A stretch of DNA of 64,000 nt. Origin: Haliotis cracherodii (taxonomy: Eukaryota). The position numbers and the translations under genes were made by a program. Location of the stretch: assembly GCF_022045235.1 (NCBI RefSeq), contig NW_027266266.1, positions 20,274,001 to 20,338,000 on the forward strand, read 5' to 3'. Shown in pieces: positions 3,645 through 56,193 of the stretch. The first letter of the stretch is position 1, and every line of letters begins with the position of its first letter. The notes under the pieces were generated by a model. It was not told the origin of the DNA. It worked only from the letters and a program-made list of their open reading frames with translations, and searched no databases.

Positions 3645-4606
3645 ATGCAGTCAAGTAGCTGTGTTCAAGGTACCAATGTGTCACAGTTTTATGTTGATTA
3701 CGTTTCACCGTGTTGTTATATAATCGGCTACCGTCAGGTTGATGCCAAGGTCTCATCACTAAAGTCTATAACTAGGCCTATAGAAATCTCAACGTACTTC
3801 AACGTTTCTCAAGATATGCTAAACCCGTTTCCTCGCATTTTATATTTCTTCTATGTACTTCAATTTCTTCAATGGCCAATGCTTACATAAATAGTGATTT
3901 TGTCCTGCCCCAGGTGAACAGCCCACTAACAAATAGAACGAATTAATAAATACAACTGACACGAACGTGTATAGATATATATGGGCCTACCGGTATATGG
4001 TATATACTTACAAGATTACGTTTTTAATAACTTTACAGTGTAAATAAGCGTGTACATGTTTTATTTATTTTCACTTTTCCCCCACACAGATAGGATGTTT
4101 CACCCGGCTTTCACCCCTGCTGCCACTCCTGTCCCACGTCGAGTAGGTGTGCTAGGGTTGTAGAATATAACTACCTTTTACAACAGATCCTTGTCTAAAT
4201 CTCAGTGTGTCAAAGTGTTGATGTTCCATAACCTACTGTATGACCACGTTCCTAACTAAAGATACACCACACCCTACCTATCACTAGTATCAGTATCACG
4301 TTTGTCTCATCATTTCTCTCTTTCCACTTCCCTCCCCACCAGCGTCCTTGTGTGTACCACCCTGAACCCCTGTCCACCCTCCCCACCTCCTACACCTCTG
4401 TCCCCGACCCAGCCCCTGTCTCTGTTTCTGTCAACATCACCGGCCACGTCATTATGGTTGACACCGACTTTGTGGAGATCGATCTCGGCCGTGAGGAAGA
4501 CACACAACCCCTCCCTCCCCAGTCCTTCCTGAGAGCCTTGCTGTCCCGCTTCATCAGTCTGGTCAAGAGAGTCTTCACCTCCAACAAAAAACGACGCTTA
4601 AAGTGA
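3645..4606 (+). CDS. Novel 3-exon small protein, copy 1 (113 aa; +1 A in the terminal A-run gives C-terminus NKKRRLK)
   Basis: Exons 3645-3669, 4090-4142, 4343-4606. Donors CAAG|GTACCA and CGA|GTAGGT; pyrimidine-rich acceptors ...cccacacAG and ...ccccaccAG. Phases 1 and 0 join in frame. Exon 1 is the least certain part; the ATG at 4095 is an alternative start. Confidence 0.65.
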
Positions 4607-4709
4607 CATTTTTGTAACAATCTGAGAAGTCACCTTTTCTTTTTTTTGTATGGACACTTTGGCAAATTAGTTATCATTCCCATTTGGTTGTTCTTTCATT
4701 AGCATGATT

Positions 4710-4750
4710 AGTAAATTTTGTTGTTGTCAAAATTGTTGTTGGTTGCTTTA
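4710..4750 (+). terminator. Putative poly(A) signal (variant AGTAAA) with downstream GU-rich element
   Basis: AGTAAA at 4710-4715, about 100 nt after the stop, is followed by ttttgttgttg...ttgttgttggttg. The decayed paralog has canonical AATAAA (5824-5829) at the homologous position. Confidence 0.45.
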
Positions 4751-5003
4751 TTCTATTATTAGTGTAGGAGCCTCCTTACGTATGGAACAAACTCAAACCT
4801 AACCTTAAGCTACAAATAACATTACAGAATTCTGATTCTACGTTTGTAGATCTCCTCAAGTCTGTGACAACTTGGCGAATATTGTATGCAATAGTTAAAT
4901 ATTATACTACAACAATAGGTTTCACAAGTTACTCATGTTAGAAATCGGACCTTGGTCAGGGTGTGACAAGCAAACACTAACTGCTGTGCCACCCTTCAGT
5001 CAA

Positions 5004-5005
<2 letters not shown>

Positions 5006-5056
<51 letters not shown>
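5006..5056. repeat. (TG)n microsatellite 3' of the gene
   Basis: Homologues at about 23124, 28807, 43113 and 49300. Confidence 0.95.
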
Positions 5057-5058
<2 letters not shown>

Positions 5059-5330
5059 TTATATGGACTAAAAAAGTATATATTTTGAGCTCAGCAATTT
5101 ATTTGTTTGAACAAACCTGAGGACAATTATTCCCCCCACCCCAAATTCAAACATTGTGTTTAAAAGAGGGATGGTAAGAACATGAATAGGGATGTATCAT
5201 GAATGTTTTCGAAGAAAAGTCCTAACTCAGTAGACTATGGGCCATAAGACCTGGACATAATTTTCATCACCCATCTCCCTGGTCTTAAAACAAAAATGTA
5301 TTGTTTCCGCTCTTGATGCTGATTTTGTGG

Positions 5331-52672: not shown

Positions 52673-52711
<39 letters not shown>

Positions 52712-53900
52712 GGTAAACGTCTGAGACCTGCATCACTTCGGGCTTTCCTCCCAAATTAAGCTGACACGCCATGATATAACTGGAATACTGTTAAAAGCGG
52801 CGTTAAACCCCACTCACTCACTCTGCCTGTCTTAGACAGTCTATCAGCATCTTTAATATAAAGGGTAAAGTCTGTGAAAGTGACCTTCATATCCTCTACA
52901 TTATCCAACCATATTATGCCTGAGACATTCCAGAAGAGAAAGTTAATGAAGCTATTATTACTGTCGCTTCTCTCCCTTGATGGGTTCTCTTGATGAGCAG
53001 TAAAATCAGCGTATAGGCCCTGGCCACACCCTTAGCTCTGTCCCCCTACTGCTGGCCTGTGTGACCTCGAGCGCGTATCCCGTCTCTCATCCTGTTGTCT
53101 TTCCTCTCTCTCATCCTCTGTGCCTCAAGATATGCTTTCCTGTTCAGCTTGGGGGCACGGGTGGCCCAGTCGTCTAAGGCGCCGCGATTCGTTGTGCAGA
53201 GTTGCGTCCCTTGGACACACCAGAAACCTATGATTGTGGGTTTGAATCCCGGTTCACCCCGATTATGTTTCTAGGTTTGTCAGCACCATACCCTGTGCTC
53301 GTGTGTTTCACCGAAGTGGTAAACGTCTTAGACCTGCATCACTTCGGGCTTTCCTCCCACATTAAGCTGACACGCCGTGATATAACTGGAATACTGTTAA
53401 AAGCGGCGTTAAACCCAACTAACTTACTCACTCACTCCTGTGCAGCTTCATCTTTTCTAGTATCTCTCCTCTCTTCGGCTTCCCTCACTAATTTCCCTTC
53501 TCTGTAGTAGAACCGTGTGTCTGGTTCGTCTGTTCCGCATTTTAATAATTCCTGTCTCTGATTTAAAGTCAAGTCATTAGAGATGCCATATCCTTTACCT
53601 TTAAGGACGACACAGCTTGCATTTTGTCGTCCCAGTGCAGCATCTTCACGAGAAGGTTTATTAGGCTTCTTCGTCGGCATACGATGTGCACGTTTCTACA
53701 TCTCTGGAATTGAGCGGGGGAATTTCTTCTCTATCTTCAGTACTTTCAGAACTTTCTCCTTACACACCGTATATGATTCATGTTGTAATTCAGGCACTCT
53801 ATATAATATTACATTATTTTTCCTGTTTCTGCGGTCTTGGATTCATAGTGGATGTATTATAAATTCACAAGGTTTTGAGGGAATTGATCGATAAGCATAA
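52230..53900 (-). mobile_element. LINE family 1 remnant including ORF1 C-terminus
   Basis: ORF 53432-53680 (LKGKGYGISNDLTLNQRQELL...YREGKLV) is homologous to ORF1 of the family 2 fragment; APE fragment at 52354-52542. Confidence 0.8.
53151..53435 (+). mobile_element. SINE A in LINE ORF1
   Basis: TSD tcctgt(t/g)cagctt on both sides. Confidence 0.9.
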
Positions 53901-53910
53901 CTTAAAAGTT

Positions 53911-54184
53911 GGATGGGCCTAAGGCGCCGCGATTCGCTGTGCAGAGTTGCGTCCCTTTGACACGCCAGAAACCTATGATTGTGGGTTCCAATCCCGGTTC
54001 GCCCCGATTATGTTTCTAGGTTTGTCAGCACCATACCCGTGCTCGTGGGTTTCACCGAAGTGGTAAACGCCTGAGACCTGCATCACTTCGGGATTTCCTC
54101 CCACATGAAGCTGACACGCCGCAATATAACTGAAATACTGTTAAAAGCTTCGTCAAACCCAACTCACAATCACTCACTCACTCA
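53911..54184 (+). mobile_element. SINE A (5'-damaged)
   Basis: Diverged TSD cttaaaagttg/tttagaagttg. Confidence 0.85.
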
Positions 54185-54254
54185 TTTAGAAGTTGACGGA
54201 TGATAATGTAGACATAATTTATGGATACCAACTTCTTTATTTTACTGTAACCTT

Positions 54255-54289
54255 GACGTTTCGGTATAGATCCTTACGCCGTTGTCAAG
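54255..54289 (-). ncRNA. Hammerhead-like motif, second copy
   Basis: UUGACAAC-GGCGUA-AGGAUC-UAUACC-GAAACGUC; flanks CCUU/AAGG can pair. Confidence 0.5.
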
Positions 54290-55255
54290 CAAGGCTGAAT
54301 AATGAACATGGTACAAAATATATATAGAAGGATGAGGATTAACAGTAACAAACAATTGCATACATGAAAGAGATAAACATGAGTAAGTTAGATAATACAC
54401 ATGATAAGGAAGCCAATTAAACAGGATTAGTATACATAGGAGAGGTCGCTATTGCTTGATGAGTTAACAGTAGGCGGATAGGATGAAATGGCCTTGATCT
54501 CTGTTGATTGATGGTTGTGGCGGCGAATGTGGACTGCTTCTCTTAGTTGGCTTTTTGTGAAGTCCTGGAGTTGTTGGAGAGGATTTGGGCGGTTTATGTT
54601 GTGATTAGGGCAGTTGGTGATGTGGTCCGAATGGCTGATTTACTGTCGGATTTGATGGTTGAAGTTTTGTGCTCTTTGATTCTGGTGTTGATGGGGCGGG
54701 ATGTTTCACCGACATAGGATTGCCCCATATCATCAGCCGCCTCCTTCAACCCCAATATTGACCCCGATTTCGCCAGATCAACCCCCCTCAATTTTCTAAG
54801 AAGGGACAACGACAGAAACACGACTAAACGCCAAGAACCTAAAGGTGTAGTTTATAAAATTGACTGTAACTGGACAATCCTATATAGGGAAAACATCCCG
54901 CCCTATAACCGTTTGCATTCATCTAGCACCCCTACATTTCCAAAAAGAATGCACGAAACACAGATTCAATAATTGTAGCCTTTTCCTGTTCACAAATCCT
55001 AAAGTGGACACTCATATATTAAGTCGACTATGAATTAATTAGTCATAGAATATCAAATACACGTAACGCCACATTAAATTAGCGGTATTAACTTATACTT
55101 TGAAACTGAGAGTTATCTCCCTTCCGTTGGTGCCGCTCGTTGCCAAGCTACCGATATCAGCAAAACGACGCCATTTTATGTTGCCGCATCTGCTGTCTCT
55201 TTGTTCTCAATCTATAACCTGCCTTGGATTTTGAGCATCGCTTGAGTTTTTAAAC

Positions 55256-56193
55256 ATGCAGTCAAGTAGCTGTGTTCAAGGTACCAATGTGTCACAGTTT
55301 TATGTTGATTACGTTTCACCCTGTGGTTATATAATCGGCTACCGTCAGGTTGATGCTAATGTTTCATCACTAAGGTCTATAACTAGGCCTGTATAAATCT
55401 CAACCTACTATACTCGTTTCCTTGCATTATATATTTTTATTTGGTACTTAAATTTCCTCAATGGCCAATGCTCACATAAATAGTGATTTTGTCCTGACCC
55501 CGGGTGAAGCGCACTAACAAATAGAATAAAATAAATACAACTGACACGAACGTGTATAAGATGATACCTATAGACCTATATGCTATATACTTACAAGCTT
55601 ACGTTTTTAATCAATGACTTTACAGTGTAAATAAGAGTGTGCATGTCTTATTTATTTTCACTTCTCCCCCACACAGAGAGGATGTTTCACCCGGCTTTCA
55701 CCCCTGCTGCCACTCCTGTCCCACGTCGAGTAGGTGTGCTAGGGTTGTAGAAACAGAATATGACTAACTTTTACAACAGATCCTTGTCTAAATCTCAGTG
55801 TGTCAAAGTGTTGATGTTCCATAACTTACTGTATGACCACGTTCCTAACTAAAGATACACCACACCCTACCTATCACTAGTGTCAGTATCACGTTTGTCT
55901 CATCATTTCTCTCTTTCCACTTCCCTCCCCACCAGCGTCCTTGTGTGTACCACCCTGAACCCCTGTCCACCCTCCCCACCTCCTACACCTCTGTCCCCGA
56001 CCCAGCCCCTGTCTCTGTTTCTGTCAACATCACCGGCCACGTCATTATGGTTGACACCGACTTTGTGGAGATCGATCTCGGCCGTGAGGAAGACACACAA
56101 CCCCTCCCTCCCCAGTCCTTCCTGAGAGCCTTGCTGTCCCGCTTCATCCGTCTGGTCAAGAGAATCTTCACGTCCAACAAAAACGACGCTTAA
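55256..56193 (+). CDS. Novel 3-exon small protein, copy 8 (111 aa)
   Basis: Exons 55256-55280, 55677-55729, 55936-56193; GT-AG introns, open frame. Confidence 0.7.

Follow-up and report, generated by a model that had tools for sequence, protein, structure and literature searches.

A tandem array within a large abalone gene family

The window analysed here, a 64,000-nt stretch of the Haliotis cracherodii genome (NW_027266266.1, positions 20,274,001 to 20,338,000) located on contig C3 of genome G000, carries a tandem array of a small three-exon gene. Self-comparison of the window revealed eight copies of the repeat unit, all on the + strand. As a preliminary description of the sequence had proposed, each copy combines a 25-nt exon 1 and a 53-nt exon 2 with GT..AG introns of phases 1 and 0 (8/8). 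The same description assigned a 258-nt exon 3 and a 111-aa open reading frame to every copy, which alignment bears out for seven of the eight (258 nt including the TAA stop) but not for copy 1 (ATG at 3645), where one additional A in an A-run near 4590 yields a 113-aa protein ending at a TGA at 4604-4606. All eight are nonetheless open, as claimed, including copy 1 despite its late frameshift. The units are irregular, about 88-98% identical and interrupted by repeats, with ATG-to-ATG distances of 5.7-11.6 kb. The copies are as follows.

3645..4606, + strand: copy 1, exons 3645-3669, 4090-4142 and 4343-4606; 113 aa
15285..16504, + strand: copy 2, exons 15285-15309, 15698-15750 and 16247-16504; protein P0023 (XP_071093190.1)
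21764..22719, + strand: copy 3, exons 21764-21788, 22209-22261 and 22462-22719; 111 aa
27447..28402, + strand: copy 4, exons 27447-27471, 27892-27944 and 28145-28402; protein P0028
33671..34618, + strand: copy 5, exons 33671-33695, 34108-34160 and 34361-34618; protein P0007
41756..42708, + strand: copy 6, exons 41756-41780, 42201-42253 and 42451-42708; protein P0011
47939..48894, + strand: copy 7, exons 47939-47963, 48384-48436 and 48637-48894; protein P0012
55256..56193, + strand: copy 8, exons 55256-55280, 55677-55729 and 55936-56193; protein P0024

Contig C3 holds 41 near-identical exon 3 copies in six clusters of 3, 1, 19, 4, 4 and 10, and the window contains eight members of the 19-copy cluster. 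When modelled, all 41 keep both GT-AG introns and 38 encode 111 aa; one is lengthened to 115 aa by a 12-nt in-frame duplication, and in two the frame shifts late, beyond the C-terminal helix described below (113 and 106 aa). Together they encode 37 distinct proteins. Protein searches of the genome added five further subfamilies, six in all, bringing the family to at least 112 loci on 12 contigs (41, 5, 15, 2, 7 and 42 per subfamily), a lower bound obtained by merging exon 3 matches and counting a few broken copies. The array first described as the family is thus multicopy as stated, but a small part of the whole. The modelled representatives share a short exon 1 (phase 1), a 53-65-nt exon 2 (phase 0) and a long exon 3 at 40-65% protein identity. 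Exon 1 was located in 14 of the 19 loci of two dispersed subfamilies, and the intron phases were the same wherever it was located.

Contrary to the preliminary description, the gene is not hidden: RefSeq carries 111-aa "uncharacterized protein" models with the same splicing in H. cracherodii and H. rufescens. Exact protein matches to the listed RefSeq records, which cover 30 of 39 cluster members, were obtained for 6/8 window copies and 30/41 copies overall, and one relative bears the label isoform X2. Such models at NCBI usually draw on transcript evidence, and it is from the RefSeq models that we infer transcription of the family.

Relatives occur in four Haliotis species and in two unnamed ENA fragments, and every named relative is a Haliotis protein. 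A search of 1.84 billion representatives gave seven matches (four Haliotis, the two ENA fragments and one repeat-rich, chance-like hit) with a short, low-complexity profile that can miss distant relatives, and 25 of the 26 matches in a further homologue search were from Haliotis. P0049 (E 8e-6) was rejected as a relative, being a repeat-rich match to the proline linker with neither the motif nor the helix of the family. A phylogeny built from 35 proteins has H. asinina or H. rubra members in four subfamilies, and the window subfamily comprises, among annotated proteins, H. cracherodii and H. rufescens records only; the ENA fragments P0046 and P0048 sit on long branches, and both carry the motif and helix. 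Because four subfamilies hold H. asinina or H. rubra members and the window subfamily only two species, the family is old in Haliotis and the window branch probably expanded recently, though a gap in the annotation of other species does not prove that the branch is missing there.

The preliminary description recognised no homologue, and our searches returned only these uncharacterized abalone proteins and the two ENA fragments. Pfam gave no convincing match (best E 0.0036, below cut-off, in the low-complexity linker of P0046) and PDB no sequence match at E<=10. The ESM Atlas held no usable match for P0002, and residues 55-103 of P0047 matched one unnamed cluster at 0.77, which is chance level. 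In the metagenome and viral contig collections (alignment A2), 0/332 and 0/321 pattern matches were confirmed, giving no sign of a viral origin at the sensitivity of that search. Identifier and keyword searches of the literature, with a coverage short of most subscription journals and of supplements, turned up no paper about the family, and none citing any of the 12 identifiers searched. Lineage-restricted tandem families are already known; the new elements here are the scale, at least 112 loci, and the combination of motif and helix. At least 112 loci for which no name, domain or paper was found make up a large unexplained share of the abalone gene set, and the recent burst to 41 copies indicates selection on dose, in species that are farmed and declining.

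Constraint and protein anatomy

Sequence variation among the copies supports purifying selection, as had been suggested. The window copies differ by 11 synonymous and 10 nonsynonymous variants (codons 2-107), reproducing the earlier hand count exactly, against a neutral N/S of 2.4-2.8; the resulting ratio of nonsynonymous to synonymous polymorphism (pN/pS) is 0.32-0.38 (binomial p 0.010-0.024). The 41 near-identical copies extend this to 45 synonymous and 42 nonsynonymous variants, for a pN/pS of 0.33-0.40 (p 4e-7 to 1e-5). Codon 9, said to vary only between GAT and GAG, does so within the window, but GAC also occurs among the 41 copies. The corresponding dN/dS is about 0.5 and 0.26 inside two other subfamilies, and comparing the window type with the C12 type gives 0.28.

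A comparison of exons with introns, proposed in the preliminary description as a check, points the same way. Mean distances between window copies are 0 for exon 1, 0.029 for exon 2 and 0.021 for exon 3, versus 0.077 for intron 1 and 0.060 for intron 2, so that intron divergence is two to four times that of exons 2 and 3. Distinct gap runs number 0, 0 and 1 in the three exons (total 1), versus 8 and 5 in the introns (total 13). An internal neutral control, copied by the same events as the live gene, is provided by a decayed exon 3 in each unit.

5596..5723, + strand: decayed, frameshifted exon 3 remnant, found ~1.3 kb downstream in every unit
near 17619, 23772, 29477, 35734, 43751, 49971 and 57333: equivalent exon 3 remnants

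Across 29 copies this remnant has accumulated six distinct indels in about 170 nt, whereas the live coding region (336 nt) shows four gap runs across 41 copies, all of which stay open through the helix. The four-gamete test also revealed exchange of sequence among copies of the window type, with failure at 161 of 561 informative pairs of sites, as expected under conversion or unequal crossing-over. No signal of positive selection was detected in window-type copies, selection being purifying rather than diversifying. Overall, these data support a functional, lineage-restricted multicopy gene under purifying selection, in keeping with the preliminary description and more strongly than it could show, with distant paralogues that retain the intron phases.

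A second, tiny exon 3 remnant lies at 5307-5357 and at the equivalent site in other units, about 300 nt upstream of the main remnant, and retains nine codons identical to the live gene. The layout of the two remnants suggests a dead exon 3 copy split by an insertion.

The encoded protein has two conserved parts, located in copy 3 as follows.

22576..22605, + strand: acidic motif resembling an LC3-interacting region (LIR), codons 65-74; core F69-V-E-I72, with L74
22642..22701, + strand: cationic amphipathic helix, codons 87-106; S87, S94 and R95 invariant

AlphaFold, with an input alignment of 26 rows, predicts disorder except for one helix, H88-106, with a predicted local distance difference test score (pLDDT) of about 85 against a mean of 62; the motif region, residues 41-80, has a pLDDT of 54-58 and no fold. 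Motif and helix are both conserved in all six subfamilies, and in an alignment of 26 diverse members five columns never vary: F69, L74, S87, S94 and R95. The pattern [DE]..F-x-[DE]-[IVL]-x-hydrophobic occurs in 70/70 proteins versus 0.9-2.0% of shuffles, the pattern having been drawn from these same, related proteins. The motif can also be written F-x-[DE]-[IV]-x-L, with F invariant and I or V at the core end in 26/26 members. Asp occupies F-4 in 24/26 and F-3 in 18/26, net charge around the core is -5 to -9, and the core fits the W/F/Y-x-x-L/I/V LIR pattern in 70/70 proteins. For the C-terminal helix, the hydrophobic moment is 0.52-0.74 and the net charge +3 to +6 in all 26 members, and an N-terminal Y-x-Q and the F12 and P22 positions are conserved as well. 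No signal-peptide-like or transmembrane-like stretch was found on hydropathy alone; within the N-terminal 35 aa, the highest hydropathy of any 9-residue segment is 0.87-1.73, with no hydrophobic core in 7/7 representatives. Alignment A3 contains no dibasic site between the acidic stretch and S87.

Promoters, 3' untranslated regions and spacers

Upstream of each gene lies a conserved block, located for copy 1 at the following position.

3499..3644, + strand: promoter/5' untranslated region (UTR) block of copy 1, recurring in each unit and containing CTTCCG and CGCCAT

We take the CTTCCG element to be ETS-like and the CGCCAT element to be YY1-like. CGCCAT or GCCATT is present in 22/22 family promoters (2.0 expected from shuffles) and in 29/29 window-type copies found by their start pattern, and TGACGAC is present in 18/22 promoters. 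Dispersed subfamilies additionally carry TCTCGCGAGA (11/22) and the E-box TCACGTGA (7/22; 0.12 expected), the latter being the core of the TFEB CLEAR element. Neither NF-kB nor heat-shock elements were found in any of the 22 promoters. A compact cassette of E-box, TCTCGCGAGA, TGACGTC, TGACGAC and CGCCAT recurs in the promoters of L054, L055, L060, L061, L064, L065, L067, L068, L069, L071 and L072, and persists though the introns have diverged beyond alignment; the window subfamily has lost most of it and has CTTCCG in its place.

Downstream, the first 300 nt past the stop in the large dispersed subfamily repeat TTT(T/C)GGAC (for example L055:3450-3749, L059:3888-4187 and L067, minus strand). 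GGAC occurs 4-7 times on the sense strand in 10/19 loci (0.5-1.4 expected from shuffles) and almost never antisense; such words could be clustered sites for N6-methyladenosine or RNA-binding proteins. Just past the stop of L060 and L072, a second, tandem copy of the exon 3 end and 3' UTR follows about 210-265 nt downstream. L034:3715-3879 (contig C80 of G000) is a paralogue with an insertion inside exon 3, yet a 111-aa RefSeq model (P0044) fits the locus, which may be a pseudogene or an exonised insertion.

Within the array, intron 2 of copy 2 is 496 nt long, lengthened by a ~290-nt dispersed-repeat insertion (15908-16190) that has 13-bp direct repeat flanks, GAGT repeats at its start and related copies in unrelated loci. 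An AT-rich, low-copy block appears twice in the window, at 8600-14370 and 59889-63880, and ends in a minus-strand RNase H-like/zinc-finger fragment (13797-14369, below the Pfam cut-off); it is probably the decayed end of a long interspersed nuclear element (LINE) that interrupts the array. LINE-type endonuclease fragments also lie in the spacers at 18773-19333 (+) and 39756-40106 (-) (PF03372, E 4e-8 and 0.015). The window contains no Rfam families and no tRNA.

Possible functions and known counterparts

Conservation of an acidic motif and a cationic helix raises the question of what the protein does. The reading we tentatively favour, while holding it somewhat doubtful, is that this 111-aa, predicted-disordered protein acts as a minimal adaptor between membranes and ATG8 proteins in selective autophagy, amplified for dosage. 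In such a mechanism, the protein would sit on an anionic or curved membrane by its C-terminal amphipathic helix and recruit ATG8/GABARAP proteins by binding them through its acidic F-V-E-I motif, and unequal crossing-over with exchange between copies would amplify the gene and raise its dose. The LIR consensus is W/F-x-x-I/L after acidic residues, and an FVxI core is found in optineurin, ATG13 and influenza M2 (PMC3991421). For influenza M2, Asp residues at F-4 and F-3 are reported to contribute to LC3 binding (PMC11977235). The abalone genome contains four ATG8-family genes. A comparison of L074, L161 and L162 with L085:29-379 shows the three GABARAP exons of the genome to be identical, over 117 aa, to a protein on an unrelated metagenome contig.

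Several points weigh against this autophagy reading. Plain consensus searches turn up many false LIRs, with 33 functional ones among 310 candidates (PMC9907853), and a loose acidic LIR pattern occurs in 31-49% of shuffled family proteins. The core consensus requires neither the acidic residue at F+2 nor the L that is invariant at F+5, and these could serve another partner; no cargo-binding part was identified in the protein. The variants counted above were scored relative to the majority codon, and the exchange of sequence between copies means that they do not represent independent events. Finally, the E-box lends weak support to an autophagy role, because it is found within 1 kb in 0/29 copies of the window subfamily, its copies in paralogues are not independent given their common ancestry, and USF-type factors also bind it.

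A bolder version, which we consider unlikely, would make the whole family of more than 110 loci a set of stand-alone ~110-aa adaptors that evolved and multiplied in abalones, each consisting of little besides an ATG8-binding motif and a helix that senses membranes, with the subfamily amplified 41-fold in the lineage of black and red abalone serving as a ubiquitin-independent receptor that marks anionic membranes, for example those of damaged organelles or of vacuoles with intracellular microbes, for engulfment. If the motif is a working LIR, the protein would be among the smallest selective-autophagy adaptors; if it is not, its invariance nonetheless indicates a binding site that deserves to be identified.

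Almost as likely as the adaptor reading is that the protein is a small regulator inside the cell. Its F-x-[DE]-[IV]-x-L motif would then bind not ATG8 but, for instance, the FIP200 claw, a pocket in an enzyme or some coat or adaptor protein, and its helix would bind a membrane or protein that has no part in autophagy. Conservation does not stop at the LIR core: F+2 and F+5 are kept too, as are S87, S94 and R95 along the polar side of the helix, which suggests a protein contact; the conserved N-terminal positions and the housekeeping-like promoter elements (TCTCGCGAGA, TGACGAC and CGCCAT or GCCATT) would also suit such a regulator. On the other hand, by inspection no other motif class fits equally well, the acidic residues are placed as are the LIR acidic residues of M2, and, to our knowledge of their consensuses, the motif satisfies neither the SUMO-interacting nor the gamma-ear pattern. 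The charge and hydrophobic moment of the C-terminal 18-mer are those of helical antimicrobial peptides, the helix comes after an acidic stretch of net -5 to -9, and a high copy number is compatible with an effector role, all of which would fit a leaderless precursor of a cationic alpha-helical defence peptide whose acidic segment masks the helix until cleavage. We regard this as improbable: the protein lacks a signal-peptide-like stretch and a dibasic site ahead of the helix, its acidic segment, in contrast to a pro-piece that is simply discarded, contains hydrophobic residues that never vary, the copies are under purifying rather than diversifying selection, and the NF-kB and heat-shock elements are absent from all 22 promoters.

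Two further explanations concern the copy number itself. The window subfamily, seen only in H. cracherodii and H. rufescens records, was amplified locally, recently and more than once, giving six clusters on a single contig. This would be expected of an ampliconic gene of the germline or early embryo, with selection or conflict at the level of gametes driving the copy number irrespective of what the protein binds; the absence of a positive selection signal and the age of the other subfamilies, common to H. asinina and H. rubra, make this a rather remote prospect. It is very improbable that the gene belongs to a transposon or travels with one, or that a recent segmental duplication produced it as a neutral side effect, although the spacers are rich in dispersed repeats and LINE fragments and copies are spread across 12 contigs. 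A pN/pS of 0.33-0.40 argues against this explanation. The transposon form was rejected because, common repeats aside, 17 dispersed loci (four profiled against the other 16) resemble one another only in the promoter and exon 1, exons 2-3 and at most ~300 nt of 3' UTR, with no element ends in common; LINE fragments are confined to the spacers. Pfam matches to transposase, reverse transcriptase or integrase were absent at E<=1 for 10 members and at E<=0.1 for four more; no match placed the sequence in a known transposon, which the preliminary description had named as a result that would refute its proposal.

Among known sequences, the closest counterparts are the RefSeq records XP_071093198.1 and its neighbours in H. 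cracherodii and LOC124142137, LOC125380861 and LOC125380864 in H. rufescens, which are members of the same family with the length and splicing given here but are automatic models without name, domain or function. With respect to the autophagy reading, optineurin, ATG13 and the influenza A M2 tail share the F-V-x-I core with upstream Asp in a disordered region, and M2 also pairs its LIR with an amphipathic helix (PMC3991421, PMC11977235). In contrast to these proteins, the abalone protein lacks transmembrane, coiled-coil and ubiquitin-binding domains and carries its helix after the motif; the likeness is one of a short motif, and no homology is claimed.

Epr1, CALCOCO1, C53, TEX264 and FAM134B are single- or few-copy genes. 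Their products, like the abalone protein, combine a disordered linker, an ATG8-binding motif and a membrane-recruiting part, and the soluble Epr1, CALCOCO1 and C53 and the membrane-bound TEX264 and FAM134B are recruited by endoplasmic reticulum proteins or by transmembrane or reticulon domains (PMC11246128, PMC9098120). The abalone protein differs in having about 110 aa, a single predicted terminal helix and at least 112 loci. By analogy, it may work as LIR-bearing disordered receptors do, a suggestion we offer with reserve.

At the level of the array, a parallel is provided by USP17/RS447-type macrosatellite genes, which form tandem arrays and birth-and-death multigene families. These share with the abalone genes head-to-tail intron-bearing copies, exchange between copies, decayed remnants and dispersed daughter clusters. 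The abalone array is the looser of the two, with its irregular, repeat-interrupted units of 5.7-11.6 kb that are about 88-98% identical.

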